A DNA stretch of 61,329 bases, filler included, from Asterionella formosa (lineage: Eukaryota): NCBI GenBank assembly GCA_002256025.1. It is 7 parts of 7 records of this genome, joined end to end, with 100 filler letters (N's around TTAATTAATTAA, not from the genome) between each part and the next. Parts side by side here need not be neighbours in the genome. Positions count along the whole stretch, not along the records: positions 43,900 to 52,570 come from NKIB01011862.1; positions 52,671 to 61,329 come from NKIB01011864.1; 5 more parts are not named here. The stretch is one strand, 5' to 3'. The notes beneath the pieces were generated by a model, which was given only the letters and a program-made list of their open reading frames with translations, did no database searches and was not told the DNA's origin. This document shows, piece after piece, positions 6,853 through 61,329 of this stretch (positions within the stretch are counted from its first letter, which is position 1; each line of letters opens with the position of its first letter). The translations under genes and the position numbers were made by a program.

Positions 6853-7501
6853 TTGAAACCCTAGGCAAAAATTTATATAATGCTTAGGGTTGCCAAAATT
6901 CCCTGGAATTAAGAATTTAATTACCTATTTTTGAATGACGTGATTCCATTTGAAATATTTAAATTACTGGAAATGTGCGAATACATACATAGATTCCTTA
7001 TCCAATGTGGCCGGCGTGGGTTTGCAAGACCTCGCAAACCAGGCCAATCGAACAGACGAATGTAATTCACGTTCACCAATCATATTATATATCTGGAAGC
7101 GGGCACTTACAATGGAACTTTTTGGACAGGAGATTTTAGGACTAAAAATTCCGGCACACCAATACCATTCAGATGATGACGTTTCGGCAAATAATAATTC
7201 TGATTCCGATATTTTGGTGACCGTAGAAAAGGCCGATTTTGTCGAGTTTTTGGACGACGATAGCTAAACGTTGGCTGGGTCTAACGGCAATTTAGATACA
7301 TGGGTAACTTTCAAATAGCATCAGTATATAACTTCTGGCGCGAAGACTGAATGTAAGCATATGGAAAGGGTGTGTATTGGTGAAAGCTCCGTTGAGCGTT
7401 ATACATATTTAATTTGTATGTGGAAAGTATGTGTTTGATTAGTCTGACTCAATATTAATTTATAAACCCTACCTCGAGCTAGGGGTTCAAATGCAGCAAC
7501 C
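6853..7501 (+). mobile_element. Non-autonomous GGTTGC-ended TIR element, internally deleted copy
   Basis: Near-identical to 38980-40175. Right end CTAGGGGTTCAAATGCAGCAACC|TTAA is the inverse of that copy's left end TTAA|GGTTGCTGGATTTGAAACCCTAG. Confidence 0.75.
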
Positions 7502-9257: not shown

Positions 9258-10152
9258 ATCGGGCATACATTACGTAAAATCAATCAATATGTGAACGATC
9301 TAATTTAACATTCTGGTCTCGTAAAAACAATACCAAGTCTACAGATAAAATTTTATAATGTGTTCAAAGTAAGTGTTAATGTTTAGCGTAAACCATGCAT
9401 GGTTGTTTTCAGTACCACGTACGTAGTATGTAGGCATTGTTAAGACCAAATAATCACATGCATAACCGGAGGAAAAACTTGCCGCCAACATCAGATGTAT
9501 TGCTATCATCGTTTGTCGGACGAAATATGGACGATGCAACTACATGGACGATGCGACTAAATGAATACCTCGAGAAGACAAGCAATCCAACAACCAACCG
9601 CACCCATTAGACAACAAATCGCTACTGGTGTCATCACTGAACTGATTTCGCTTCAAACCGGTCGTGATGGACGACGATCGACATGGTGAAAGGCTAATTG
9701 ACAGAGTCCACTCTTCAGGAGACAAACAAAAACGAGGTGAATTCTAGATATAAATTATTCAAATCTGTATATAAAGTGGTTTCTTTAAGTAGACCCTTGC
9801 CAATTTCGGCAATCCCAGGGCTGGAAAACCGAGGGGCAATTGGCGTCTATTGTCTTGCCAAAATGCGAACATATGAAATATACAAAATATATTTTAATGA
9901 TGGGTAATATCGGAACTTTGGGAATTTTCGAGGTGAAGACAGGAAATATATGAAATACACTTTGTATGATGGGCCATAGTAAGATAAAATTGACATTTAT
10001 GCTTTATTTGTGGGCAGTAGGTAAGCGAATGACGCGACGATAGTAGCTAGAGCGGGAATTGCCTCAACAATACCCTTCTCGGTGGCTACTTGCCTTCTCG
10101 TATACATGTGTACTCGCAGGCAAGAGACCACCTCGGGCGTGTATTGCCTTCA
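9258..10152 (+). mobile_element. CGAG-hairpin element, left-truncated copy with collapsed terminal hairpin
   Basis: Colinear with the reverse complement of 33661-34650; ends GTATTGCCTTCA; inner ~100 nt of the hairpin is missing. Confidence 0.85.
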
Positions 10153-10264: not shown

Positions 10265-10700
10265 TGAAGGTAAGACACGACCGAGGGTGGAGACTGACTG
10301 CGAGTATTCTTGTGTTCGAGGCTTGGGAGGCCCTCGCAGGTTGACCTTCTCGCAGCGCCGGGAAGCCGAGTACACAAGATTACGAGTAGGCAGACTCCTC
10401 CCGAGTAGGGTCTTACCTAGGCAATTCACAAACTAGCTATTGGCGCGCTTTTCGCCACTACATTGCCCTTTCAGTTAACATTGAAAACATATTTTGCATA
10501 GTTTGTATGTTGGATGCGAACTAGCCAATTGCCCTTCATCTAAATTATATATTGAAAATTTCATGTCTACAGTTTTTGGATTACTCAATCCTGCAATCGC
10601 CCATCATATAAAGCATATTTTGTATATTTCATATGCTCTGTTTTTTTGACTGCCAAGCTACCTTCAATATTTTCAATAGCCCCTAGATTCATGTAAAACC
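10265..10700 (-). mobile_element. Divergent subfamily copy of the CGAG-hairpin element (right end)
   Basis: Starts TGAAGG; hairpin 10270-10416 with three symmetric CGAG pairs; then GCAATTCACAAACTAGCTAT sub-TIR and GCCC(A/T)TCAT repeats as in other copies. Confidence 0.75.
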
Positions 10701-31599: not shown

Positions 31600-33650
31600 C
31601 GGTAGCCGCTTTGCCTAGGACTCCTGTTTACTACACAACTCTTTTGTGGTGGGCTAAGTAGACACCTAGTAGTGTAGGTGGTAACGCTGTTTGATGGTGG
31701 TAATGGCGGGTTTACTAGGGTTTCCGACACCTTTGCACCACCGTACACAGAGTCCATGGACTAGGTTTCCGCCCTATGGGCTATAGGCTAAACCGGGGTG
31801 GGGCTGCCGTTAGGGGGCGATTGGGTTGGGTAGGTCGACCAGGGCGTTGGGAACATCCTGGCCGGGAATGAGAGTGTAGGTGCCCCCCACAAGCATGTGG
31901 CGGGCAAGGTCTTGCATAACTGGCTGGGCCTGTAGGTGTAAGTACTGCAGTATTTCTTTAGATTGCCAGCGGCCAATTACTAAGCGAATGCGGTTGGTAT
32001 CAACATGCGCGCACAGTAGAGCCATAGCGCCGACCCCCGGAGTGATCAGGCACTCACATCAGAGGGAAGAAAACCTAAGGATGATCCGATGAGGGCTGCA
32101 GAGGCACAGAGTGCAACGGTGATATTGGTGGCCATAATGTACGTCCAGCGGTGATTGTGGTGGCGGCCATTGAGGAGGGGGGGGGGGGGGGGGGTGGGGG
32201 CGGGGGGGGGGGGAAAATAAAGGATTCGCTGCGCAATAGCCCGGACAGGGCAGGCATGCTGGTGTCCGCTGCACTGGTGACCGATAACTTCACCACGAAC
32301 GCCACTTTTTTGGTTGGTAAAGTGAGAGAGGCGAAAGTGGCAAGGGCGAGGTCAGCCAGGGGACACTGCAGATGTAGAAGGCGCTGGGTACCAATCCAGA
32401 GTTGAACGTCCTGGAGGCGAAAAAGGGAAAATTGGTGAATGTCCTCGGCATGGGGGAGACCTGTGTATTCACCGGACCGCATGAGAAAAAAATATCCTAT
32501 AAATGCCATATCTGAAGTGGCCTAACCGGTGGGGTTGGTAGTGGTCATGGCCTGTGTGTGGGCATGGAGGAGGAGCGGGAGTGGGATGGGTTTGACACGC
32601 GAGGGGGGCGAGTCAAGTTTTCCGTAGAATTTTTGTTGGCGAAGAAGACGGAAGTCTCCAAAGGGTTTAGATGAGGGTCTGGGGACCCCAAGCTGGAGTA
32701 CGTCTGCGCAATCTGACGCACGGCATCTTCCACTGTGCAAGACCGAACCTGTTGTCTGGAGGGGGAGATCTAGCCAGTCTTGTGCAGCCGGGATTTGTCG
32801 GCTCACTACCATGGCGGCATAACGGGGTGGTAAATATACGATACTTCGCACTGTAAAGTAGTCAGTATATTGACCATAAAGGGAGTTTCCAGCTGCATCA
32901 GACATGGGGCCCATGAAATCTCCCTTTTCATCAGAGTGCGGCTCCCAATTGGCTAGTGCTTCATCCATGATTGGGAGGGTGGGAGCATACACCGAACCTG
33001 CAACAGCAAATACCTCGGGAGCGATGTGCACCAAGGGTATCTGGTTTGCGGTGATGTCTCCAAGAATTCCGAATAGTTTGTTATCCCAAGGGGAGGATTC
33101 GGTGAAGGATCCCGGGTAGCGGAAGATACGATGCACACAGGCGATGTTTCCTGTGTCATTCACGCGAATGGCGACAGCGAAAGCTTGATGCGTGGCTGGT
33201 TTCACCGCCAATAACTATTCTGTTTGCCAATTTTGTGGCATTGAGCACCTCCGGACCCAAAGCGGAAGTGACCTCATAGATGCGGCGATAATCACCATCA
33301 AGGCAGTCGAAGTCCGGGTCTCGGAAACACATGGCGTAATCGCCCATAGACGTCATTTCACGAGTGGTGTGACACTCCAGTTCGATACGTGTAGGAGTCG
33401 ACTGTGAAGGAGGAATGCAGCTGCGCAGTGGCGAAGCAAATGGATGACAGGAAGTTTAATCTTTTTTCGGACGACCGTCTTGGTGTATTTCCGCGATGTT
33501 ATCCTTCCGTGGGCTCCTGAGCTTGCTTTCGTAGTCAGCACTGCTCGAGCCAGTCTTCCGTTTCAACAAGGTTGCTTTCGAAGTCAGCGGTTTTGATGAA
33601 ATAATGATTCTTTTTTCTTTTCAACTGCCGGAGGTTGAGGTGTGTGGTGC
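31600..33650 (-). mobile_element. Tyrosine-recombinase (DIRS-order) retrotransposon, degenerate internal-deletion derivative
   Basis: GC-rich island. Gag-like ORF1 fragments (~33350-32770) join directly to YR fragments: EDAVRQIAQTYSSLGSPDP, DSPPSRVKPIP, IGYFFLMRSGEYT, SA*SLR.GAMALL, GRWQS..LQYLHLQA. Stops and frameshifts; no RT/RNase H seen. Boundaries approximate. Confidence 0.75.
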
Positions 33651-33660
33651 TGGGGTGTGC

Positions 33661-35024
33661 TGAAGGCAATACACGCCCGAGGTGGTCTCTTGCCTGCGAG
33701 TATACATGTGTTCGAGGCTGGGTGGCGCGAGTAGGTTGACCGTACGAGTGGCGCCCCCGGCGCTGCGAGAAGGTCACCCTACGAGTGCCAACCCAGTCGA
33801 GTACAAATGAATACGAGAAGGCAAGTAGCCGCCGAGAAGGGTATTGTTGAAGCAATTCCCGCTATAGCTATCGTCGCGTCATTCGCTTATCTACTGCCCA
33901 CAAATTTAGCATAAATGTCAATTTTAGCCTACTATTGCCCATCATATAAAATATATTTTGTATATTTCCTATCTTCACCTCGAAAATTGCCAAAGGTCCC
34001 ATATTGCCCATCATTAAAATATATTGAATATAAATTATGTTCGTATGTTCGCAAGACAACAGACACCAATTGCCCCTCGGTTTTCCAGCCCTGGGATTGC
34101 CGAAATCGGCAAGGGGTCTACTTAAGGAAACCATTTTATAGACTATACAGATTCGAGTAATTTATATCTAGAATTCACCTCGTTTTTGTTCGTCTCCTGA
34201 AAAGTGGACTCCGGCAATTCACCTTTCACCATGCCAATCGTCGTCCATCATGACCGGTTTGAAGCGAAATCAGTTCCGCGATGACGCCAGTAGCGATTCT
34301 TTGCCTAACGGATGCGGTTGATTGTTGGATTGCTTGTCTTCTCGAGGTATTCATGTATTCGCATCGTCCATATTTCGTCGGACGCACGATGATATCGATA
34401 CATCTAATGTTGGTGGCAAGTTTTTGCTCCGGTCATGTATGTAATGATGCTTAACGGATATTCTACCGGTACCGGCAGTCATCTAGTCTACATACGTACG
34501 TGGTACTAAAAGCAACCATGCATGCTTTAACGCTTACTTTGAACACGTTATAATATTATCTCTGTAGACTCGGTATTATTTTTACGAGACCTGAAATGTT
34601 GAATTATATCGTTCACATATTCATTGATTTTACGTACCGTATGCCCGATTTCGTCCTCACAAATATAGTTCTCACTCTATCTTGCCTGCCTTTGCTCTAT
34701 TCGGGCTTGCAATAGGCAACGTTCGTCTTTCTTTTATCCCATCGTCTGCTGCTTGTTATGCTAGTTGAAGCGGATCGGTGAGTACAACAGTGAAATACTG
34801 AATGTGGATTGTAGATCGTATTTATCGGGCCGACTTTCCGATTTGATTGCTTCCGTGGTTTGTTTTGATCGCTTCCATCGTTGTTTGTTGTTACGCACTG
34901 TCGTTTTGTTTCGATTGTACATATCTACATGAGAACCAATGCATTTATCAATGACTACTCATTGAAGATGTGGTATTGTGCCGTTGTTGATCGTATTTGT
35001 TGATTTGTATAGTCGTTGACAATG
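33661..35024 (-). mobile_element. CGAG-hairpin element, right part with intact 180-nt terminal hairpin
   Basis: TGAAGG terminus, hairpin 33667-33846, sub-TIR 33852-33875; body shared with 9258-10152; 34632-35024 overlaps 52671-52932. Confidence 0.88.
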
Positions 35025-38979: not shown

Positions 38980-40175
38980 GGTTGCTGGATTTGAAACCCT
39001 AGGCAAAAATTAAAATATTGCTTAGGGTTGGCAAAATTCCCTGGAATTAAGAATTTAATTAGCTATTATTGAATGACGTGATTCCATTTGAAGTATTTAA
39101 ATCAGTGGAAATTTGCGAATACGTACATAGATTCCTTGTCGAATTCGCTAAATATATATATATAGACGCTCTGAGTCGCTGGATGTATAACGGTATATGC
39201 GCTAAAAGTACGATCAACATGTATGCATGGACAGTCTATACCGGTACTCCGATTAACGAATTTATATGCTATGCATTGAATCCGTTCGACATATTCAAAT
39301 CGTTCAATATATATATACACATTTAGATTCTGCATCGCTTCATGTGCATACACCAGTACTACAATCTATACTCCGATCGACGACCATGGGTCATGTATAC
39401 GACCCTGCGGCTCGGCAAATATTTGGAAGTGCACTCAAGGAGCGGTCCGCGTATGTGCAATGATGATCATTTACTGGTTCCTGGTTCCCTGGTACCCGTC
39501 GAGAATATAGAAACGGACTGTCAGTACACCCAAGAAAATATTACATGTTTACAGTGTGGCCGGCGTGGGTTTGCAAGACCTCGCAAACCAGGCCGATCAA
39601 ACAGAGGAATGCAATTCACGTTCACCAATCATATTATATATGTGGAAGCGGGCACTTACAATGGAACTTTTTGGACAGGAGATTTTAGGACTAAAAATTT
39701 CGGCACACGACTACCGTTCCGATGATGACGTTTCGGCACTTAAAAATTCTGATTCCGATATTTTGGCGACCGTAGAAAAGGCCGATTTTGTCGAGTTTTT
39801 GGACGACGATAGCTAAACGTTGGCTGGGTCTGACGGCGATTTAGATATATAGGTAACTTTCAAATAGCATCAGTATTTAACTTCTGGCGAGAAACTGCAG
39901 AAAGGAATTTCGGTTTTTTTACTTTGCCAAATAAACAGATTTCCCCCGAATTTTCGAGTTTTTTTTAGCATAGTTTAAAAACCGAAGTTCCTTTCTGCAG
40001 TTTCTGACCAAATCCTATATACTGACGATACATAGAGTGAACCTACACCCCTATTTTGTCCGAAGACTGTATGTAAGCAAATGGAAATGATGTGTATTGG
40101 TGAAAGCTCCGTTGAGCGTTATACATATTTACCGGTAATTTGTATGTGAAAAGTATGTGTTTGATTAGTCTGACT
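38980..40175 (+). mobile_element. GGTTGC-ended TIR element, longer copy
   Basis: TTAA|GGTTGCTGGATTTGAAACCCTAGG left end; colinear with 6853-7452 plus extra segments ~39137-39553 and ~39889-40060, the latter containing a 29-bp inverted repeat. Confidence 0.78.
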
Positions 40176-40179
40176 TAAT

Positions 40180-41530
40180 GCAGCAATGGGTACCAATATC
40201 CTCCACCTCATATCCATCTAGATCGCCTTCATGTCCATGTAGTAGCACCCTCTTGATACTTTTTCTGAATCAATCCTCCTGCTCTGCACCAGGAAACAAT
40301 AGACCATCTGTATCTTGTAGAATTTCTGGGGAGCATGTCATGTACTCAAACAATGCAGTTATTGGGCACAATGCAAAATCCTCAGGGTTGGTGTAGTAGC
40401 TACTGTCGGGGCTTGAAATTCTTAGAGCCATCTTGATCAATTTTTGTATGAGAAAATCGAATCCCCACAGCATCTTGACTCCAAACCAAATGCTTGATAC
40501 AGACACCATCAGTACTATCAACACAGCCCATCAAATTCTAAGTTACACATAAAAATGCACGTGCAAAAACAGCTGATGGAGAGCCATCTTCAATCAACCA
40601 TATGTTTATTTTTCGGTACAGGTCGATTGTCAATTCACGTTTTCCCTCCTCAAGGCTACCCATCCCGCCCATCTTGTTTTGCCTTACTTGCAATTCATTT
40701 GACGCCAGCAACGAGATCTTTCAGCTCATTATCAAAGTTGTCTGTAGCCTTCATCTTATACTTCTTAAACAGGCTGTAAAGTGATGTCTTCTTGTTTTTA
40801 TACATTTTCTGACTAAGTAGACAGCCTGTCATTGGATTACTGAGGGTCTCAAGATACTTTGCGAAGTCTGTAGGCTTTAAGCAAGTACTCAAATTCAATT
40901 GGATGCAATCCTGTAGAGACTTCCCTCCTTACAAGAAAACTGCGCATCACTGATCTTGCTTTCTTCACATGATTTGGAATGTCTTCAATATCATCAGTGA
41001 TATATCTGATTTGCGCTAGCATCTACAGTCCTGGTAGCTGGTCCTCATGTTTATATAAATATAACAGAAAGACTTCATGTTCAGACTGGTGCCGGCTCAT
41101 TGTTGATTTTGCTCTTGTGTTCCCTCTAATATTTGCTAAATTCATGAGCTGTAGGGACTTCATTTTATTTGCTTCCTTCTTCGCCTGTTTTGTATCATGT
41201 TCTCTAATAGTGCTGCCTTGTTTGTCAATCTCTGGTGGTAAAATGCTATCCATGATATTTACATGCCCAAGTTCTACTAGCTATGCCCTCGTCCTCTTGT
41301 CCTTGATTGGAATCATGTCTCCTCTCTTCATCTTGTTGCAGTTGTTGCAATGCAGCTGCATCATCTGGATCCATCAGGGCGCGACCAAACTTTTCATAGC
41401 AATGGAAGCATGTTGTTTTGAACTGAAGACCGCAAAGAGCTTGAATGCTATACCCACATCCAGGGCAGTTATGTGCAGTTGACCTTGGTAGCTCCTTCAC
41501 CATGCATCTCGCTCTCTTGAGATGCACAAA
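40180..41530 (-). pseudogene. Crypton-type tyrosine-recombinase transposase pseudogene
   Basis: N-terminal Cys cluster HNCPGC..CG..CFHC; EEGKRELTIDLYRKINIWLIEDGSPSAVFARAFLCVT*NLMG; YTNPEDFALCPITALFEYMTCSPEIL..LFPG; EDIGTH (start of HxxR box) where the neighbouring repeat truncates it. Confidence 0.72.
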
Positions 41531-42430
41531 CTATTCTTCATTGTCTGACATGATATTTTGATGTGGCAGTGGGTCGCTTCCATAGGTATATTGTTGATTG
41601 TTGTTGTTCTCAATTGATGTTCATAATTTGCTGAGTCGGAACCCCTAGTACTACCGGTATGGCTATTAGCAGTAGCTATCATGCATGTACTGTCAACGTG
41701 AATCCTACGATGGTACAAAATTGAACGCTTTTTCTACACGTTCTTGGGGAGAAAAGTCTCCCCAAAAAGCCGCTACTGACGGGGCCGCAGAAAATATACG
41801 TGTTAAAAGCTAGAGGGGAATAAACGTCAGCGCGGAAAAAAGGGGAGAATTTCTCCCCAAAAATGTTGCAGGATCTCCTACATTCTCCCCATTTTTCCAC
41901 GCTTCTCTATAAACGTTTAATTATCATTTTTGTTTGTTTAAAATGGAACTCTGTCTATCTGGCGCCGACTCCTATTTAATTCAAATATTCAAATGGACAC
42001 TCGAATCATTGGAACTCATAGCAGCAAACTCCCTGTTCCATGCCGTTTTTACAACCCTAACGACGTTTTCTCCAAACTAGGGTTAATCCGAGGGCCGCAA
42101 CCAAAAAGATAGAGCTAAACGTTTAGTTTCAGCACAATTACCGCAACTTGCTGGTACCTGGTACCAGGGTATGTATTTTTGAAGGAGTAAAACATTGCCG
42201 ATATTCACCAATTGTTCCATTTGCACCGATGACGATCATGTGTACCGGTACACTCTACCGAGTCTGAGGAAACAGCAAAAGGATCGAAGTATAGTTCAAG
42301 CCGGTACCTGGAACAGTATTGGTACTTTACCAGGTAATCCATATTGGTATAGTCACTACACAGCGAAAGTGCTCGGCGTCGTTCCTTGCTGCATACATTG
42401 TGGGGTTCAGCGATCGATGATGTTGACAGA

Positions 42431-47931: not shown

Positions 47932-49157
47932 GCAATTCCTGCTCCAGCTTATCGTCTTGCCACTCGGGCACTTCTAAGTAAATTTTAGGCTCTAAGTAAT
48001 TTGTTATGTAATTTTTAAATAGGGGAAATATGGGGCACATCGAATTATTCCGCATTAATTAACATTGCAGATTTTAGCATGACAGCCAGAATAATGGTAA
48101 TATGCAGAGAAATGGTAAAACAAGTGTCAAACACACAAGAATGATTGTAGCATGCAAAATCAATGAAAATTGAACATGATGTTTGGAGCAACCAAGAAAG
48201 CATGATATGTAATGTATAATAAGTTGCTTCAAAATATAATTTATCATTAAGATAATGCCGACCCTACAGCAATAACATTATGATGTGTTCAAAGTACACG
48301 TTAAAGTTTAGCTTAAACCTTGCACAGTTGTTTTGAGTACCATTCATGTACTATATAGGCTATATGACTAGAATATCCGCCTGTTAGAGCACATAGTAAA
48401 TGACCGGAGCAAAAGCTTTCTGCCAACATCAGATACATTGCTATCATCATTTGTCTGCAGAAATATGGACAATTCGACTACATGAATCCCATGAGAAGAC
48501 AAGCAATCATCCAACAACCAACCGCATCCTTTTGACAACGAATCGCTAGCTACTGGCTGGTGTCATTTATAAATTCATTTCGCTTCAGACTGGTCATGAG
48601 GAACAACGATCAGCATGGTGAAAGGTGAATTGCCAGAGTCAGATTTCAGGCGACAAACAAAAATGAGGGGAATCCTTAATTTATTTTAAACAAATCTGTA
48701 GAATATATAAACATGTTTTCCTTAAGTAGACCCCTTGCCGATTTCGGCAATCCCACCAGGGCTGGAAAACCCATAAACTGTCTTGCCGAAATGTGTTAAT
48801 GATGGGCAAGAATATTGGACCTTGGCAAGATTTGATGAGAATATAGGAAAAATACAAAATTTATTTTATATGATGGGCTATAGCAACCTTAAAATGACAT
48901 TTACACTCAATGAGTGGGCAGCAGGCAAGCAAATGGCGCGATGATAGCTAGTTTGTGAATTGCCTCAACAATAACCTTCTCGGTGGCTACATGCCTTCTC
49001 ATTTACATGTGTACTTGGTTGGGATGGCACTTGTAGGTTGACCGTCTTGCAGCAGTGCTGGGAGCGCCACTCATACAGTCAACCTACTTGCGCCACCCAC
49101 CCTCAAACACATCAATACTCACAGGGATGAGACCACCTCGGACTTGTATTGCCTTCA
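47932..49157 (+). mobile_element. CGAG-hairpin element, copy with both ends (~1.23 kb, internally deleted)
   Basis: Left end GCAATTCCTGCTCCAGCTTATCGTC; sub-TIR ~48935-48963; decayed hairpin ~48969-49151; end GCCTTCA; no TSD. Confidence 0.85.
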
Positions 49158-51268
49158 GAACAAGCCGAGAATGACAGTATGCTCACCGGTAACTGGTACC
49201 AGTAACCAGGTACCTGGTACTTGTAGGTACATACAACGACAGCTCCTCCCATTGTGCGCATGCGCATGATTACAGGCAGGACATCAAGAAATCATTTTGC
49301 TTGACTGGCCATGACAGCATGGCAACTTTCAGATGTGTACTGCTATACGATTGCCTGCGTGAACACATAAAATTCCAAGGCTGAAAATTTTAACGCTTTC
49401 GAGCTGGCATGCCAATTCATTTTCTATAAATATGATCACTTTGGCAGATATAGCAAAATGGTTTTGATTTGGCAGATTAAGTAAACTTCACTCAAATCGA
49501 GTAATGACCCAAAGCAGGACAGGCATTTAAATAAATAGAAAACATCATCAATTAACTCTTCAAATTTTTCAGTGGTATGATCACCACTTATTGACTTACT
49601 AGGTTTTATGCTAAGTTTATTCTTCAAAAAGGGAAACTTGAAACATGATAGTGACCAGGGCAAGAATAGAGGGGCGTTCTGAAGCAATAGTAAGCAAAGT
49701 AAGAAACTCAAAATCATTCTCCTATCCTGGCCGAAGTGGCTGATGAAAGTAAACTATCTTAATTAACGGTTTCAAAGTCGTTGGGATTTTGGAAATTTAT
49801 AACTGCCAGCATCATCACCATACTAGCTAATACCCAACATAACTATTAACAGCGATGATGATTTTGTCACTGAAGAGGAAGATGAAATAGATAAATTATA
49901 GATAAATTTTTTTCAATTACCTCAAATAAGAAGAATAGTAGAAAAATCGCAAGAATCATCATCATCAAGGTCATTGAATTCTCATGTGAACAGGACAGCT
50001 GACGATGCGACAATGGCATTTTCTGCGGCATCGAATAACTTGATGAACTTACAAAACTGTTATTGCTGAGCAAGAGGAGCCGAAGGAAATTGAACGAGAG
50101 TTAGACTTTGTACTACTAGCTGAGGAAATCAAGGGCAAGAAGTATATTGATCCTTAGAATATAAGAAGAAAGAGGGAGCGAAGGTTTGCATTTATCAGTT
50201 ACATGAGCAATGGCTTGAATAAGAAACTGGGCGGAGCATTCAAATCATGTTCATTTGCGAGCTTCTGATGATACTCCTGAATCAATTGGTGACAACAGGG
50301 ATGACTATAATACTAGTGAAAGTGATCATGATAATAATTACTAAGATTTGAATCATATATTGATGATAAAAAAGCTATCATATGAGATAAAAATTGAGGT
50401 AATTCACTTCAATCGAGCTGTGCATGATTTTTGTTATTTATATTGCCATAATTTGCCCTGTTGGTGGTGCTGAAACCAGCAAGCACCTCAAAGATTGCCG
50501 AGGGCGCAACAATTGAGCTGCTTCAAGGACAATAGAGATCTTTTTCTGATAGGGTAATCATTGTGATCCATTATAGCTTCTGGAATTGGTATATTTATAG
50601 GCTCCTCCGAAAATCATACTTCATCCTGACGATGAATTTTATCGTCACATCCACCAATATTACTACATAGTATGGTTCTAGATCTTTCCACTCGAGTTTG
50701 GCTGCTGGCTCTAGTCCTTAATAATTTAATAGGTGCAAATACTTTTCTGTTTCTACTTGGTGTTGGTGATGCACATTTACCTTTTCTGTGTTGCCGAATT
50801 CTAATGGTATAACCATCGAGGTCAATCGATAGCACCAACACAGCAATGTAATTAATTCCGACTTTATCCATTTCATCAGGAGCAACTTGCAGGAAGCAAA
50901 GATGCATGGAAAGGAAACATTTAGTTTAGCTTATAATTTAGTTTGAGTTTAGATTATCAATCGAGGAAACAGTGTGTTAATTGACAGGAAGGTCAATTAC
51001 TTTATCTAGCAGGGACAAGGCTAGAAGCAGAGAAGAGAGATAAAGCAAGTGGTACTACTAGGTAGTACTACAAGCACGTAAGAGCCTACGTGAAGAGAGA
51101 TCCAGCCTGCAGGAAGAAGTACGGACCTTTTCAACATACCAGTACCATACGATGCATGCCCCTCCTACAAATTCTACATAGATAAATATTTTTGAGACAT
51201 GTGCTGACAGGTAATACAATGCCAGCACATTCCTCACAGAGGCAGGTTGTTTGATAAATACCAGGGTA

Positions 51269-52300
51269 GCAGGTGAAGTAGTATCTAACTAGAAGTAGTA
51301 GTATTTGTTGAATATATGAGCTTATTAATTAATCCTTATGTACAACTCGTTTCCTAAGTCGACATCAATGTATACAATAGGTGTTAATCGGCGAGTTCTC
51401 TCAATATTGAGTTCTGATATTTTTGATATGACCCTTAACCTATATTCATCTATATCAATGTGCAGGATTGCTCACTCTCCCACACTTAAGGGAAAACCTT
51501 GTACCTATGAAAAGGTTTAATACAACGAATATCAATTCGTTCTGTAATATGCATAGTTTCTTGAGAAGTAACTGTACCATTGGCATGTACTTGAATAATA
51601 ATATAAGGACCTCGTCCACGATCATCCAAAGTAGTAGGATTATCGAATAGGATTAAAATCTCGTCACCCACTTTGTAATCATAATAAGATCGACGACGGA
51701 AATTAACACGACTTAAACGTTCGTCAATTATCACTTGTCGACGTTGATGTCGTATCAATCGTAAATCTGTAATCAAAGGAATATTTAATATCATATCACG
51801 TTGAAAAACCCATGCTCCTGGTGAAATATGTAATATACTATGAATAGTAGCTCGAGCTGCATATGATGCAGTTGCAAAACATGTATCTACAATATTCTGA
51901 GCTTGCAATTCATTGATTGGAGGATGAGCCTTTAACATCACTCGTAGACTATTACTGATAGAGTGATGTAAACGTTTACAGATAGCATTTGCTTGTGGAT
52001 TCTTGACTGTAGTAGTCACATCTTTAATTCCATTCAACACTAACATGTGTAAGAAAGGAACACCAGTGAATTCACCTCCATTGTCATGTATACAACGTTC
52101 TGGACGGGGATATCTGGCTAACTAATCATTTTCAAATTTCATCGCATTATATTCTCAAGTTTTATTATTGATACTTGAAATTTCTGCTAGATTGGTGACT
52201 GGTGTGTCAATAAAAGCAAGTTAGAGCATGAAATTCAGTCGCTTGAGTAGCCACTGTTATCTTCCATGGATCAATTAGATCTACTGCAACTTCTGACATT
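51269..52300 (-). mobile_element. Ty3/gypsy-like integrase pseudogene with PPT and 3' LTR (~51269-51474)
   Basis: VAVDLIDPW, RYPRPERCIHDNGGEFTG, TTVKNPQANAICKRLH, SPGAWVFQRDM, GPYIIIQVHANGTV, ERIDIRCIKPF; then GGGAGAG PPT and TG-starting ~200-bp LTR. Confidence 0.85.
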
Positions 52301-52570
52301 CCTGGGCGGAAGATCAACTATGTAGAGCTTTTTTAAATCTCAAGACTTCAATTATTAGTCACTGCTATATCTGTAGACTTCCGTCATCCAAAATTACGAG
52401 TAGGTACATTCACCTCAGTTCAACTCTGTCAATCATACAAATTAAACGGATTTAGCACACTTCATAGCTTCTATGTATCTCCGACAATCTTTGCCAAATG
52501 AATAAAGTCGACAATCTTGAAATCTTCATTGGCATCCTTCAAAATAGCATCGCTTCCATCAATACAAACC

Positions 52571-52670
52571 NNNNNNNNNNNNNNNNNNNNNNNNNNNNNN
52601 NNNNNNNNNNNNNNTTAATTAATTAANNNNNNNNNNNNNNNNNNNNNNNNNNNNNNNNNNNNNNNNNNNN
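52571..52670. other. Artificial scaffold linker
   Basis: N run + TTAATTAATTAA + N run, 100 bp. Confidence 0.97.
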
Positions 52671-53687
52671 ACGTACTGTATGCCCGATTTCGTCCTCACA
52701 AATATAGTTCTCACTCTATCTTGCCTGCCTTTGCTCTATTCGGGCTTGCAATAGGCAACGTTCGTCTTTCTTTGATCCCATCGTCTGCTGCTTGTTATGC
52801 TAGTTGAAGCGGATCGGTGAGTACAACAGTGAAATACTGAATGTGGATTGTAGATCGTATTTATCGACTTTCCGATTTTATTGCTTCCGTGGTATTGTGC
52901 CGTTGTTGATTTGTATAGTCATTGACAATGATGTCAATATTGCTGCCAAGCAATGCTTTTCTTGCACTAACGCGCTTTGCTACATTTCTACTACGAGTTT
53001 GTATCAGAAACTACAAGACGAATACTCAGCTAGAGAGAGTCAATAGTTCTGGAGCAGTGTGGCGATCACGCTTGCTCAGAATGGAATGATCAGGGTTGCT
53101 TGTTTGGTGGGCAGCGGAGAGGAATGACTGTGGCGGAAATACTGCTACTGGTGTCAAGCTACTACAGCGATGCGCATGGTTGCAGAAACCAGACCATTTA
53201 CGCTACATAACGATGTAGGTCAAGATTGGGTTTAGCTTTTCCCTTCTTATTTCGGTCTTCGATTGTGTGGTGATGGAAAGTCAATGTTGCCTGGTGTGTA
53301 AGTACTACAATGATTCACAATGCATTGCTACGTCTCCATTGGAACTCTTATTTTTTATTTTATTTCTAACCCAAAACAATTTTTTCTATTTCTCATTTGA
53401 TGCTACTTATTACATCGCATTTCATACTTTGGTTGCTCCCAACATCATGTTCAATTTTCGTTGATGTTGCATGTTACAATCATTCTCGTGTGTTTTACGT
53501 TTGTTGTACCATCTCCATGCATATTACCGTTATTTTGGTTGTCATGCTAAAATCGGCAATTTTATTGCCGAAAAATTCGATGTGCCCCATATTGCCCTTA
53601 CATAAAAATTACTTAAGAAATAACTTAGAGACTAAAAATTACTTAGAAGTACCCGAATGGCAAGACGATAGCTGGAGCGGGAATTGC
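52671..53687 (-). mobile_element. CGAG-hairpin element, left part of a long copy
   Basis: 52671-52932 nearly identical to 34632-35024; left terminus ..GACGATAGCTGGAGCGGGAATTGC at 53687. Confidence 0.82.
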
Positions 53688-54015
53688 TGAAGGAATCAAG
53701 ATTCCCTGGTCCCGCCTCAGTCATCATTGACTGCGTCAAAGTGGTCAGACATGCACAGCATTGAATTTTTAGTACTCTTGCTGCGTAGAATAAAATATTC
53801 TCGTAGATTTTTGTAATAAGTGTACCTTAGTTGCAAAGTGTGACTTACTACCTGTATTTGTGTTCCAAGTACCGGTACCCCGGTGAGGGAATGATTAGTT
53901 CGCACTGTTCTGACCAGGTGGGTGGGACTTAGATGTGACGCATGGCTCGTCTACTTAGTAAAGTGCTCATCTGCACTTATGTCCTCGTTTTCATTGCGTT
54001 ACGTCTCACCAACAA

Positions 54016-54597
54016 GCAATTCCCGCTCCAGATATCGTCTCGCCATTCGGGTACTTCTAAGTAATCGCTTAAGTAATTTTTATTTATGGTCAATAGAGTA
54101 TTTAAAATGGTTTCCATAATTATACCCCTTGCCGATTTCAGCAATCCCAGGGCTGGAAAACCGAGGGGCAATTGGCGTAAATTGTCATTCCAAAATGCGA
54201 ACATACGAAATATACCAAATTTTTTTTAATGATGGGCAATATCGGGCCTTTGGCAAGATTTTATGTGACAATAGGACATCTACAAATTTATTTTACCTGA
54301 TGGGCTATAGCAAGAAGCAAAAATGACATTTACGCTCAATGAGTGGGCAGTAGGTAAGCGAATGGCGCGATAATAGCTAGCTTCTTGTGAATTAGCTACC
54401 TCAAAAATACCCTTCTCGGTGGCTCCTACTTTTCTTCTCGTTTACATGTGTGCTCTGCTGCGATGGCAGCCATTCGTAGGGTGACCTTCTGACAGCGCTG
54501 GGGGCGCCACTCGAACGGTCAACCTACTTGTACCACCCAGGCTCGAACACATGTATACTCGCAGGCAAGAGACCACCTCGGGCTTGTCTTGCCTTCA
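54016..54597 (+). mobile_element. CGAG-hairpin element, minimal copy with both ends (~580 bp)
   Basis: GCAATTCCCGCTCCAGATATCGTC left end; hairpin ~54405-54591; end GCCTTCA; no TSD. Confidence 0.85.
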
Positions 54598-54684
54598 CCA
54601 ATTCACAACCTATTTCATAGCTATTCTCGTCTTGCTATTTACTTACCTATACTATCCTGCCCACCCACTGAGCATACCGGTAAC

Positions 54685-55205
54685 TATCATTTTTAGCTGG
54701 CTATTGCCCATCATATAAAATATTTTTTTGTATATTCTTATCTTCACATCGAAATTTGCAATATGGCCGATATTGCCCATCATTAAAAAATATTTTTTTG
54801 GACATTCGTATGTTAGTATTTTGGTAATACAATTTGCGACAAATTGCCCCCTGGTTTTTCATGCCTTGGATAGCCGAATATCGCAGTGGGACTTCTGGAA
54901 ACTATTTCATATACTCTACAGGTTTGATCAAAATGAATCTAGTACTATTCACCTCATTTTTGTCAGTCTCCTGAAAAGTGACTCTGCCAATTCACCTTTC
55001 ACCATGCCGATCATCATCCATCATGCCCAGTCTGAACTAAAATGATTTCATAAATGACACCAGTAACAATTCATTGTCAAATGGATGCGGCTTGTTTTTG
55101 GATTTCTTATCTTCTCATTGGATTCATGTAATCGAATCATACATGTTTCGTCAGATGAATGATGATTCTAGTATATCTGATGTTGGTAGCAAGTTTTTGA
55201 GCCAG
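54685..55205 (-). mobile_element. Internal fragment of the CGAG-hairpin element
   Basis: Aligns with ~33915-34435. Confidence 0.75.
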
Positions 55206-58065
55206 TCAGCCATGCATATGATCCCTCTGTTCCGGTATCATAGTTGCAACAAAACTTTAGGTCACTGCCTCTCATAAAGCATAACCTCCAATAACTCTCC
55301 GGCTAACAGCCCGTCCTTTCCAAAACTCGTGAGCGCTTGTATATAATTGTTTGTCTTAGATTATTCGATTTTTATATAAATAATATTTACTTTTTCAACA
55401 AATGCAACATTGAACTTTCAGGGGTTCTTGTCATCTATTAATTATACTACTCTGTTTCACGACCTACAGCCATGCATTCCCACGGCGATGTTCCTGCTTT
55501 AATCACCCTTGACCATTGTGCTTTCCTCCCATGCTGCTCCTCTCACTCCTGCTCCTCCTGATATTCCTACGGCTGACACTGTCTCCTTCACTCCTGCTTA
55601 TCCCCCATGGAAATCCTCTTACAAATCCTCCAAGTCTACATTTGCAACTTCGGTAAAAACTGGAAAGCCCCGCTTGGGTGCATAATCCCATTGATATGTA
55701 ATCTATTTACCCTATCTCGCCCCTCTGACCCTCCCACCACCACTCTTGACCCCCTTGACACACATGCACACCACTTGCCGCTTCGGCCCACAACAACAAA
55801 AAGCGCTCGTCTCATCTTATGTCTTACCATCACTACGGTTGTTTCCTATTCTGCAACCCTTAAGAGTCCCTCAATGAACTCGCCCTCACTCGTCATTCCT
55901 TTGGGGCCCATTTGGGCCCTAGTGGTCTCCATGAACTCCATATTTGAGTCTCAATAAAAGCGTACTTAAAATTTTCTTATTCTACTATATATATATATAT
56001 ATATATAATGTTTACCAGTAGAGCAATATGGAGTACTGTGAAGTCATGAGCAGCTGGAGAAAGCATGGTGCATCATGTTATCTCAGCCTCGACCATGATG
56101 AAAATAACGAATGTCTCAATAAAAATGAGAATGACGCTTTGCTATTGGGTCCATCTTTTAGGAACGATATAGAAAAAAAATAGTAAAAGAATAGTTTTAC
56201 AAACTCTAATGTTGACAACGAAAATTGAAATAACTGATAGCCCATTTTTAAATGAAATGTATAGAATCAACAATTCAAAACGACGATGCTATCAGCAGAT
56301 GTGACACTTTCACAGTAGCTAGCTGTACAACGATTGTTACAAAGACGACTAAAACAATAACATGATTAATTAAAGCAAGAAACGTGAAGAAAGTTATTTA
56401 TTAGTTTAGATTTGATTTCTTCTTATCACATAATCAAGTACGTCACGACTAAGTGGTGATCATGCATTCACACGATTTTAAAGAGAGAATCGATTACATT
56501 TTCCATGAACTTAAATGACTGTTCTGCGTCATGTCATCAATTTCAGCAAAATGACCACAACTTGCAGGTACTCACATTCGTTTAGCTGAAAATTCGATTT
56601 CACAAGAATTACAATTTTTGGAAGCGCGCGCTTGAATCATTCACAAACGGAGATAGTGAATCCTACCAGCACCAGTCACTGTCCCAGAAAAAAAATGAGT
56701 GGGAGAGGTAAAAAATACTCACCACCCGCTGACATTATAACAGCTGTCAAGTTGATACCTCACCATCAGCGATGATCTTACCAAACATTGGGAAAATAGC
56801 TTGCATTCGATCCCTGTCACTGCACTCTTCTGTTACATCGGCGATTCAAATGAAATAGTGGTATGTCTGTGAACGAAAAAAGTGGTAGGCCTAAGACTTT
56901 TGCTCTATTATCGACTTTGTCCCTGACAGCGGAAAAAAGTTGATGGGCTAGTAGGTTCTAATGATGCGACCATATATAACTCCACATTGACAGCAAAATT
57001 TCAATTTGACGTGCGTACCTTGTCCTCAGGTTGATTGATCTTCTTGTTCTATTTTTCTGTAGTAGACACTGATTGTGCTGACAAGTCAGAACCCGATAAT
57101 ACCGGTAGGCTTATATAGAGCAGTGAAACAACCATATTACTCACATGTGTTTGCAGCGATACTAGAAAGATTCAATTTCACAATCGTTTCTATAACAAAT
57201 CATTGTCAATATCCACTTTTTCTTTCAACAAGCTCAAATGAGAACTCATGTTTTATCATGTTGTGGCCCACAAGTAGGCTACTTTGCATCACATCATGAT
57301 CAATCGAGAACAACGCACAACGTTAGAATACATGAGCAAAAAACAGTGCTTCTGGGGCGACAAATACAACAAACAACAACAAACCACATTTGTTGACTTT
57401 TCAGTTCTTGAAATTACATCATTCACACTCCCGCCTCCTTCTTGCTCTCCACAACCAAAGATGCAGTGCATTTCAAATTTTGAATCAATCGCTTCTACCT
57501 AATGATTTACGAATTAATAATATTTATGTTTTGTTGAGTATCTACGTAACATTATCATTCATTTTCGTATATATGTATATATGTGTAGCTAACTTGCTTA
57601 TTCAAAAATTGGAAACCAATTATTTGCGTCAGATTAAATATCATTGACGATCACATCATGTTGACATCAAAATGAGGTGATGATGTTGTGAATCTCTGAT
57701 ATTTGTGTGATCATATACTTTAAAAGTGTGCGATCTAGAGTTTAAAGATTTTTCCAATCAAACAAATATTCTCTTTTATATTCTCGTACCATTAAATTAT
57801 TAAGTTAGATCAACAGAGTAGCTCCGTCCTGAGCTTAATCAATAACTCCGATCAAGTAGAAGAATTTTTCCGGTCACTGGGAAAATGTACTTCTGCACGT
57901 GGAAGTGACCACCCACCCAATTTTCCACCACCCCACCTTCTACAGGCCATGGAGCGCAATGACGATAAACCTAGAAATAGACTAGTAGAATGCGCTGTAA
58001 AAATGATTAATATATGAAAATATGTTCGGTCATACATAACGAAGGTTATATACATCTATGTATTC

Positions 58066-58284
58066 AGGGGAATAGCTTATTTGGTTAGCTCACCTTCTGA
58101 GATGGCGGGTTCGATTCCCGCATTATCCACTTGCTTTGTTTATGCAGTCCCTTGGGTTCCGAGTGGTGAGGAAGACGCAGGTCTTAGGCCCTCTGGGTGG
58201 TCAAGTGCGACTTCACAACCTCTACAATTGTCGACGACTTCTTTAACAATAGCGTAATATAAAATTTACTTTATAATTTACATG
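58066..58284 (+). mobile_element. tRNA(Ala)-derived SINE, full length, 13-bp TSD
   Basis: tRNA-like head 58067-58129 (GGGGAAT..GCGGGTTCGATTCCCGCATTATCCA); CATCTATGTATTC duplicated at 58053-58065 and 58285-58297. Confidence 0.82.
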
Positions 58285-58553
58285 CATCTATGTATTCTTT
58301 TAATGCGTTACATGTTGTTCATGTTGCATCATGCAGCATGCAGTGGTAACCTAGCCTGTAAGTAATTGTTGTATACATAACGATTATAATGCAGCTCAAC
58401 GTCGTGGCAATGTAAAAATACAAAATGGCTGAATCACTACAATGGATGGAGTACTATGTATCCCATCCATGTACATGTTCATGACAGAATTATGGGGGGC
58501 ACGCTAGCAGTATAAAGTGTATGCATACCGATTTATAGTAGTAAGATAGAATC

Positions 58554-58800
58554 GCAAAAATTGTCAATTAAATCTTAGTATAGTACGTTAAAACTATCCA
58601 ATCATCGAACTCGTGCCCTAATAAATGGACGCAATTTGTACCGGTTGTATTCGTCCATATGGTAAAATGGGACGACCTGTCTCCTCGTCAACCACACCCT
58701 GCCCCAGAACCCTAGGGACTACATAAAAGAACGACAGGTAGAGAATGCAGGAATCGAACCCGCCACTTCATGAGGTGGGCTAAGCACTACGCCATTCCCC
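58554..58800 (-). mobile_element. tRNA(Ala)-derived SINE, full length, ~18-bp TSD
   Basis: Head 58800-58739 (GGGGAATGGCGTAGTG..GCGGGTTCGATTCCTGCATTCTCTA); TAGTAGTAA(G/T)ATAGAATC at 58536-58553 and 58801-58818. Confidence 0.82.
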
Positions 58801-59449
58801 TAGTAGTAATATAGAATCACAGTACCAAGTACCGGTATTCACCAGGAGTGGCTTAGTAGCTAGGTCGATGCCATTCCAGACATATTCACAATACAGATAT
58901 GCTATTCATATATTTTTTATATTTTGAATTAATACAAATTATAATTTATGTAAAAGAATAAAAGAATTCATATTGGATGCTGACAATACCGATATGGTAA
59001 GGATGATTTTCGGTATGCTTGATGCATCCAGGTGATGACAACCACATCGTTTCGATTTAGTCGGTCAGTTCAAGCCCGATTGCACTCCAGAAATTTGTAT
59101 ACATTAACCCTAATAGATATTTAGTCCAGCATTTAAATTTGATATGAAATGGTTCGTTCCTTATCTGTTTTGTTGATCATTAGTAGGGTTGGTTGTTGCT
59201 TGTTTCATGTATAATATCGCGATATTTCTCAAGATCCATTTTGCTTCGTTTTTCTCTATCAATTAAGGGCCAATTGTACTCAAACAGCTTTGAGTCGATA
59301 ATGTCCAATAGCCCTCATAGAAAATTAGCTGAAGTGTTCAAATCTGAATTGAATTGAGTGAACAATAGGACAATATCTATGGTAAGAATGATTGCTGACA
59401 AGCAAATGGCAAGAAATAACTGATACAAAAAAACAGTGTGTAAGTCTCT

Positions 59450-60550
59450 GTTAAAAGCTTTTATTTATGCATCGCTCCGTGACATTTGCATAAGTCATAA
59501 CCTGAAATAGACATTCAATTGATCGAATATTAGAGATTGACTTGTTCTTGATAAACACCGCCCAAACATGTGGAAGGACCCTTTTAATTGCAGATTCGTC
59601 AGAATCTAGCGTTTCACCATTTTAGCTCGTGTGTTTACCACTCATTGATAAACTGAGACTTCAGGTCCCTGAGCGAATACAGCCCAAATAGTTAATCCTT
59701 GCATCATTGTCAAAGTGGTGAAGTTTGTGTAAAACAATTTGGCAAACCACTGCCTCCATGCACTCTGTGACATTCAATCCAGCGTCATCTTCATTTGATT
59801 AATCGAAAAGGGTTGAATCCACGCACTCTCTGGTGGAAATCTGTCTCTATTTGCTTACAGATATCCTCCAAGTTGTTCACTTTGCAAGATGAAATTGAAA
59901 TGCAGAACACACTCAAATATAATCTTAAGACGAAAAGCTTTAAAGAACTTCTTTTTCTCTGTCATTGAGAAGCTTGTTGTGCGCTTCGATTTAACCTACA
60001 AGCCTCCCATGAGTAGCAAAGGTATCCATTGGTTCCTGGATAGGCTGTTTATGAGGATATTATGTGAGTAAACTATAAAATGTAAATGACAATGACAGCG
60101 AATATACAAATAATATCGGCACGCCAAAAACACATGCCGATGTTGATGCCGTCACCCGTAGAGTAGCTGTGTCAGGATCCATGTGCGTTCCAGAATATTA
60201 ATAAATTAAAAAGTCAGCACAGAAAGGATCCAAACGGTTGGTTGTTGATGATACATCATCATTGTCAACAGATTAATCAATGGAACATGCATGCATAGCC
60301 AAGAGCAGAAAAAACGCTCAATATTCAGCATCGTCAGTTTAACCATCTGACGGAATTCTGGTGACAAGATTTAGTAGAGGATGAATATTAGTTCAGTCGA
60401 ACTAATCAATCTTGAATAATGTTCCAGCCAAAATCCCATATTGAAATGTTGTGAGAATTTGAACAGCTTTTGATTGCCAAGAACTATGTCAGCAAACCAA
60501 GGTTCAATATTTGAATCGAGAACAATGTTTTAAGAAATCAATATTTCACT
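59450..60550 (-). pseudogene. Possible heavily decayed hAT-like transposase
   Basis: Fragments LVTRIP-VRW (hAT xxRW motif) and RVLPHVWAVFIKNKSISNIRSIECLF (resembles the dimerisation-domain SSA..ERLFS) in the right order; very degenerate. Confidence 0.35.
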
Positions 60551-61329
60551 GAAGGGAAGGTATATATGCAATGCCAATGGCATTGAATATTCACGATTGT
60601 TCTACTAAGTAAATGGAGTTGAGCTGTCAGTTGAGAGTTGAATGTCTAACAGCATAATGAATATTTGTATACAAGTTTGGGAAGAGAACCTTAATAATGA
60701 ATGATTACAAGGTAGATCAAATAAGCTCACAATAAGGTGAGATTAGAAAAAAAGGTTTTAGCAAGTACACTGAGCTTGTCTAGAAAGAGCTAGCTTTTCA
60801 GACAGACTACAGAAGAATTTAACATTGTGGCACAGTAAGGAACTGCATTCACCAAAAGTTTCTAACAACCCCCAAAATGGAATTTCTTTGTGGTAGGAAA
60901 CAGTGTTTTTTGGCATCAGAGAACTACTCCTGGGTTCGAATTTTTTGGGAATTTAAAAATTTAGTAAATTTCCCAAATGCGATTTCATGACTGATAAGCA
61001 CGGACCTATACCCAAAGTCAGCATGTTGAACTTGCTCAGCTCTCAACGATTTTATGTCAGTGGACAGCAATTGAAGTCAGCATCAGTCAGCGAATATTTC
61101 AAATTTTCACCAAAATCAAGTTGGTACATAGAAACACATTTCCGTGATACAAGAGGAGGTTTGCTCGTCGCGCATACACAAAACCCGGAAGAAAGAGTTA
61201 AAAATTGGATTGATGAGCAGCAACAAAATTCGACGAAAGATGCAAAATTTCGCCCGTTTAGATCCGCCTCATATAATAATGTGTTGAGCACTATCATGAC
61301 GACGGGTATTACGACAACTCGGCGGTTCT

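Follow-up and report, generated by a model that had tools for sequence, protein, structure and literature searches.

Two related transposon families of Asterionella formosa with offset inverted arms and a strand-biased terminal hairpin

Introduction

Cryptons are transposons of eukaryotes that depend on a tyrosine recombinase (YR). Known Cryptons are described as having no inverted ends and direct repeats of 4–6 bp (PMC3212892), and active ones excise cleanly yet multiply in copy number (PMC9977147). The active CryptonF-1_cRei was compared alongside CryptonS and CryptonF (PMC9977147). Here we analyse a 61,329-nucleotide stretch of the diatom A. formosa (assembly GCA_002256025.1), called the window below, in which an initial annotation had outlined a mobile element with asymmetric inverted repeats. 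The window consists of several contigs joined by N-linkers, and pieces on either side of a gap were not counted as one copy; whole-genome counts refer to the 68-Mb eukaryotic genome.

The element is real and well defined, and comprises an abundant family, A, and a sister family, B. Three of its features are new: a middle target base that differs between the families in step with the element's right arm, a spacer carried at the right end, and joined ends that extend the terminal hairpin into one rod in which the cut would lie in a loop. A and B are probably DNA transposons of the non-autonomous kind that rely on a Crypton-like YR acting in trans, with exchange of one strand. They share with Cryptons the lack of target duplication, a short motif common to one terminus and the target, joined ends that form an arm–spacer–arm recombination site, non-autonomous derivatives that outnumber masters, and occurrence in diatoms (PMC3212892, PMC9977147); they differ in having a 24-bp inner repeat and a 191-nt strand-biased hairpin. 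We do not file the element as a Crypton, because two published Crypton features fail and the enzyme is not tied to the ends.

Results

Family A has at least 224 left ends in the genome: its left 25-mer, searched exactly, gave 224 matches against 0 for the reversed control. The right part gave 1158 candidates, of which 40 were scored. A complete A copy (L061) is 2116 bp long, in agreement with the approximately 2.1 kb of the initial annotation, which also gave the lengths of two shorter copies (582 and 1226 bp) correctly. Family B is about 2430 bp long, starting with GCAATCCCC and ending with TTACCTTCA. Family A is non-coding, and neither family contains a long open frame. Both ends of both families are sharply bounded, and insertion is polymorphic between samples, where presence and absence of the element were seen. 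In L061, unrelated flanks start at identical points (1465/1466 and 3584) in four runs from four studies. Run X3 appears to hold the precise empty site, as one contig (depth 95.9) spans both flanks with coordinates that fit within a base.

The left termini at 47932 (plus), 53687 (minus) and 54016 (plus), with their flanks ..TATCA, ..CCTTCA and ..AACAA, are present as first described, and so are five right ends at CCTTCA: 10152 (plus), 33661 (minus), 49157 (plus), 54597 (plus) and, in family B, 10265 (minus). The terminus at 47932 carries one substitution and one inserted base. As had been proposed, the left terminus is the inverse of a site just inside the hairpin (the inner site; 22 of 24 positions). 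It had been said not to be the inverse of the right terminus; it is inverse there too once 5 bases are skipped (12 of 16 positions), a match reached by 0.03% of 20,000 shuffles. The joined ends therefore read arm–CTTCA–arm. The joined-end site is ATTGC-CTTCA-GCAAT, with longer imperfect arms and a spacer of 5 bp, or of 7 bp if the flanking C and G are counted. This shape recalls the sites of Cre-type recombinases (loxP), which act by YR cleavage chemistry. The inner site is itself of the form ATTGC-N4/5-arm.

The predicted junction CCTTCA^GCAATT does exist: a metagenome contig, L065, carries it exactly, and the genome has it at L062 with a single change. Mixed junctions between an A right end and a B left end occur too, at L131, L136 and L142, and the predicted junctions at L065 and L062 may thus be re-insertions rather than circles. 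Right ends also abut an inner site at L072, L144 and window position 54598. About 10 of 100 left ends listed have an inner-site-like flank (eight letters, by eye); the two checked in full, L081 and L082, are true left ends. Two supposed left ends at inner sites (L091 and L142) proved on checking to be ordinary inner sites.

The CTTCA spacer stays on the right: of 60 left ends in the genome, only 1 is preceded by CCTTCA. Counting in the other direction would be biased, because right ends were mostly selected for CCTTCA. At L023:1553-1600 and G000:C6544:11638 the spacer is inverted between the arms (TGAAG for CTTCA), which might reflect either recombination in the opposite orientation or a small loop inversion. 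In L086 and L140, CTTCA meets an ATTGC or CTTGC that lies within the element, which places the break at the other spacer edge.

We counted the flanks of genomic copies, using 60 left flanks (50 A and 10 B, with junctions to other copies removed) and 84 right ends, of which a lenient filter dropped 11 as possible self-insertions. The flanks are non-random and the target resembles the joined ends, as the initial annotation had suggested. The target it proposed, TCA^GCA, did not survive, since TCA precedes just 4 of the 60 left ends; the target of both families is T-N3-Y-Y-R^G-N-A. On the left, T is found at −7 in 46 flanks, pyrimidines occupy −3 in 43 and −2 in 42, and a purine is at −1 in 59 (A 34, G 25), the last as would be expected if a G of the inner site faces −1. 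On the right, filtered family A flanks have G in 40/40, then C in 34, T in 3, G in 1 and A in 2, then A in 39/40; those of family B have G in 31/33, then T in 17, C in 11, G in 3 and A in 2, then A in 31/33. The middle base thus differs between the families (C:T of 34:3 in A versus 11:17 in B, Fisher P 7e-6; 44:3 versus 4:12 before filtering), in step with the right arm of the element. Family B takes both GTA and GCA flanks and has both GTAAT and GCAAT arms. Family A right flanks have C at +7 in 15/40 and at +8 in 17/40. We rejected the idea that B inherits GTA as part of itself, since its tree, although poorly resolved, shows no clustering of C or T flanks (11 changes versus 9.3 in shuffles), and the idea that the target pairs along the whole inner site, as only −7 stands out while −4 and −6 do not follow. 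In the window, the annotated right flanks GCA (10152), GCA (33661), GAA (49157) and GTA (10265) hold; CCA (54597) is instead part of an inner site, now decayed, that belongs to a copy in inverted orientation.

All 17 complete copies are free of a target duplication beyond a single base, and a paralogous empty site agrees with this; the initial annotation was right in seeing none. Left ends begin with GCA in 92 of the 100 listed (of 201), and with GTA, GGA or GAA in none (counted by eye), whereas paralogous empty sites show GTA or GGA at this position; the left GCA is therefore element-borne. The second haplotype (L002), 97% identical to the copy at 52671..53687, has GGA after the same flank.

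The hairpin occupies the last 191 bases, with a z of −5.1 on the GA strand, and is lower in energy on that strand than on the other in 42/42 hairpins. Its stem carries tandem G.A pairs. The inner repeat lies 191 bp from the 3' end in 32/52 copies. At the hairpin foot, B has a compensatory base pair in 11/11 copies, which are related and count as one event. The natural junction L065 folds as one rod (−76.6 kcal/mol for the GA strand versus −69.3 kcal/mol for the other), in which the left terminus lengthens the hairpin stem and the junction lies at an internal loop. L033, L063, L086 and L105 carry segments of the long hairpin that have been flipped without changing their location.

It had been argued from the lengths of the copies that only the ends are needed. 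The 582-bp copy, however, is a later deletion of a 1639-bp copy, its twin with the same two flanks in L002, and no two of nine shortened copies compared share both breakpoints. The short copies therefore do not show what is required for moving.

We searched the genome for an enzyme with profiles. There was no match to Replitron (PF21859; the control was silent too), to Helitron_like_N (PF14214; a weak negative, as the control was silent), to DUF3504, or to Y1_Tnp (PF01797), whose control matched in 6/14 genomes and which is insensitive to eukaryotic relatives. Phage_integrase gave three matches, and the one that was read is a bacterial XerC-like gene; its high-GC, bacterial-looking contig, L166 (G000:C14089), is probably assembly contamination. 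YRs of the CryptonS type are abundant, with 118 genome matches by protein search, and Pfam does not recognise them. The Pfam negatives for a partner are thus weak, because Pfam misses the YRs of this very genome. The named relative of a local recombinase is from Fragilaria, which, like the gene content, indicates a diatom genome.

One complete YR-encoding element served as an internal control (L203:2867-5811, 2945 bp, catalytic-region motifs present). Its left terminus is inverse to its right arm at offset 7 (15/17), it has a 7-base spacer at the right end, and inner arm copies lie near one end. This element has the same end design as A and B.

Among 115 open frames in the interiors, 60 had no Pfam family above the cut-off; a conserved 92-residue frame had no relative found; an Atlas search gave no score above 0.81; and viral contigs gave no match by pattern or by YR profile. 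No YR remnant was found in A/B copies. Read depth was rejected as a measure of copy number, since the data source advises against it, and coverage in RNA runs was rejected as evidence of expression, since only contigs are available.

Discussion

The initial annotation had named both HUH and YR elements as possible kin of this element. The evidence leans towards a YR, and an HUH enzyme is kept as a rival. Movement by a YR is supported by the arm–spacer–arm junction, whose offset-5 match has a chance of 0.0003, by the YR-encoding element in L203, which shares the offset-arm design, and by the abundance of CryptonS-type YRs in the genome. The single rod formed by L065, the strand bias of the hairpins and the compensatory pair at the hairpin foot also speak for the proposed mechanism. 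A one-sided outcome is supported by the near absence of CCTTCA before left ends and by the near-constant left GCA. Target right flanks look like each family's own arms, which we also count for a YR.

In the mechanism we propose, the element would leave as a circle bearing the arm–CTTCA–arm site, and the recombinase would bind these arms as well as target DNA that resembles a half-site. The decisive exchange would take place on the GA strand, at TGC^; the element's spacer would then remain on the right and that of the target on the left, and replication would resolve the rest. A further proposal, of which we are less sure, is that the donor site acts as a folded single strand, the form in which integron attC sites are used. 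In such a donor, the inner 24-nt repeat would pair with the left terminus, the cut would fall in an internal loop at the long hairpin's foot, and the G.A-studded rod would mark which strand is used. The fuller proposal, of a eukaryotic YR transposon that recombines as a folded single strand in the manner of an integron cassette and is copied out and in by replication, is a tentative one, and we think it somewhat doubtful. Like the element, attC sites are imperfect palindromes that are stabler on one strand, with two arms about an unpaired central loop (PMC7439510); their outer arm comes partly from neighbouring DNA, and their outcome is one-stranded. The fold and scar of A and B are compatible with recombination as a folded single strand. 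The attC sites are bacterial, however, with an RYYYAAC core and extrahelical G and T, and belong to cassettes rather than dispersed transposons, whereas the A/B stem has G.A pairs; the comparison is an analogy only.

Other YR systems offer partial parallels. Bacterial four-gene YR elements also take the spacer of the circle junction from one strand only and move by copying out, but their 6-bp spacer comes from the flank, and a long hairpin is not among the features reported in the available part of their description. Starships likewise combine a eukaryotic YR, asymmetric inverted ends and a circular intermediate (PMC13465315; bioRxiv 10.64898/2026.09.21.753150); they are fungal, giant and cargo-bearing, with a DUF3435 recombinase and a TTAC-type direct repeat. 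Replitrons, which PMC10288648 describes as not detected in diatoms, have short direct terminal repeats and a Rep HUH partner; A and B have no direct terminal repeat beyond GCA, and PF21859 was without a match, its control being silent.

Several observations weigh against a Crypton-like YR. The spacers of YR sites are quoted as 6–8 bp (PMC3212892), against 5 bp here, or 7 bp with the C and G. The motif shared by terminus and target is G-N-A with the −1 purine rather than a direct repeat of 4–6 bp, the spacer is unmatched by the target, and the offset inverted arms (12/16) have no counterpart in described Cryptons; the published rule that Cryptons lack inverted ends may, though, be incomplete, as the L203 YR element has them too. 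No free circle was seen, nor was the joined-end junction among the rows listed (15 of 304). GTA, GGA or GAA stands in five of the 7 paralogous empty sites that correspond to A left ends, a larger share than would be expected from the right flanks, and the crossover may therefore differ between copies. One copy has GCA on both sides while its 83% paralogue has GTA there; this and the non-GCA empty sites could reflect divergence or an exchange reaching into the arm. The arms do not account for T at −7. Finally, the autonomous partner that the initial annotation had called for was looked for among YR loci on 50 contigs, many of them too short to contain ends, and none has A/B ends as its own; the PIF1 and reverse transcriptase families were not searched. 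A YR lies in or against A/B copies in six cases (L075, L198, L200, L206, L211 and L216), at different offsets; five of these YR elements have termini of their own and the sixth is truncated, and the YR genes are nested insertions. The six nests involve three different Crypton-like families, and such a nest could easily pass for a master. In L075, the YR next to the left end of an A copy was ruled out as the partner, being a separate element with its own ends. An autonomous master may lie downstream of about 20 left ends that have no readable continuation.

Alternatively, an HUH (Y1) transposase might move the GA strand as a single-strand circle and choose its target by base pairing, as in IS200/IS605; we regard this as unlikely, though it fares best among the rivals. 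The target TGC or TAC, 5' of the cut, would pair with a triplet that lies in the hairpin five bases from its end, GCA in A and GTA in B. The middle target base follows the element base in a pattern that fits pairing on the GA strand with G.T wobble, and the poorly resolved B tree shows no grouping of C or of T flanks. The covariation, however, comes down to a single change that separates A from B, and a recombinase whose two arms differ explains it equally well. IS608 does work in this manner, and shares with A and B the use of one strand, subterminal hairpins, the lack of duplication and a target motif kept on one flank that tracks the element sequence (PMC5934647). It is moved by a prokaryotic Y1 HUH enzyme and has short hairpins at both ends with an unpaired 4-nt guide, whereas the supposed guide of A and B lies in the stem and is fully paired in B. 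The strand-biased hairpin suits an HUH enzyme; the 12/16 dyad is left unexplained by it. That Y1_Tnp had no match is a weak argument, as the family searches missed the genome's own YRs.

The element could also be a non-autonomous Helitron2/Helentron with an oversized 3' hairpin, moved by rolling circle, which we consider improbable. Such elements have a 5' repeat inverse to a site just before the 3' hairpin and make no duplication (PMC3627910, PMC11417382), and head-to-tail junctions would fit. The likeness drawn by the initial annotation nevertheless fails on repeat length (24 bp versus 8–15 bp), hairpin size (the repeat lies 191 bp from the 3' end versus 20–30 bp), 5' base (G rather than T) and target (not T^T). 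Both ends, moreover, are precise, and Helitron_like_N was without a match, weakly given its silent control.

An undescribed class of enzyme is less probable again. It would account for the absence of a partner and for interiors that match nothing, but each feature of the element has a YR or HUH precedent, and the partner searches covered part of the genome.

Least credible of all is a non-autonomous DIRS-like retroelement, in which the inner site would splint both ends of a single-stranded cDNA before YR integration at a trinucleotide: the inner site does complement both ends, the left terminus and right flank share a trinucleotide, and there is no duplication (PMC3266345), but A and B lack the long inverted terminal repeats and the exactly complementary internal region of DIRS1-like elements, the inner site (CTCAA or CTAG) is unfaithful to the conserved last six bases (CCTTCA), and B has GCA at its left end yet mostly GTA on its right.

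Our literature search, which covered few subscription journals, found neither a description of the A/B end design nor a eukaryotic recombinase that uses a folded single strand. Because A and B are sister families with different targets, provide hundreds of insertions with a defined site and leave a scar on one side, they make a one-strand copy-out route testable. Whether the enzyme proves to be a YR or an HUH transposase, the result would be a compact site of integration whose target rule can be learned; if it is an HUH enzyme, the element would be a transposon of eukaryotes that carries a reprogrammable DNA guide.

Features of the window and related copies

Table 1. Copies of families A and B in the window and their parts
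Feature	Position	Strand	Remarks
Family A copy, complete	47932..49157	+	Older, internally deleted, 1226 bp (reference 1-292 + 1158-2116)
Left terminus	47932..47956	+	Arm; inverse of inner site and, at offset 5, of right subterminal arm
Family A copy, left part	52671..53687	-	Younger; terminus at 53687; ended by contig gap
Family A copy	54016..54597	+	582 bp; deletion product of 1639-bp copy at same site
Right terminus CCTTCA	54592..54597	+	Final right-arm base and element-borne CTTCA spacer
Inverted copy	54598..55208	-	Older; inner site abuts right end of 582-bp copy
Family A copy, right part	33661..35024	-	Young (reference 742-2116)
Terminal hairpin	33661..33851	+	191 nt; stabler on GA strand
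Inner site	33852..33875	+	22/24 to left terminus; itself arm-spacer-arm; junction point with other copies
Family A copy, right part	9258..10152	+	Hairpin shortened
Family B copy, right end	10265..10638	-	Ends TTACCTTCA; flank GTA

Two copies, L098 and L163, are chimeras that combine the left end of A with the right end of B, with flanks GTA and GGA. In a third subfamily (L117, L121, L159 and L162) the right end is of B type, and the interior is different and opens with a decayed Cys/His-rich frame; this stop-laden frame matched only short unnamed frames, its relatives in other assemblies. Subterminal repeats common to A and B, CTAAGTAATTT (three times) and TGATGGGCAAT (twice), lie at positions 40–90 and 1732–1844 of element A and are possible binding sites.

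Directly beyond the right end at 33661, decayed frames without a Pfam match occupy 32075-33214 (minus). Within them, 32075-32521 reads like what we take to be a YR-retroelement motif, which would speak for a DIRS-like origin. A young YR family of CryptonS-like character, with the fixed left end AGCGTGGAAAAATGG, is represented by a decayed copy at 40174-41906 (minus); copies of this family with long open frames are found on the short contigs L170 and L172. About 6.4 kb of the window (54650-61070) is absent from the second haplotype, L002. Another repeat family, which has a 156-bp imperfect palindrome, is present at 39870-40025, 38991-40179 and 6853-7453.

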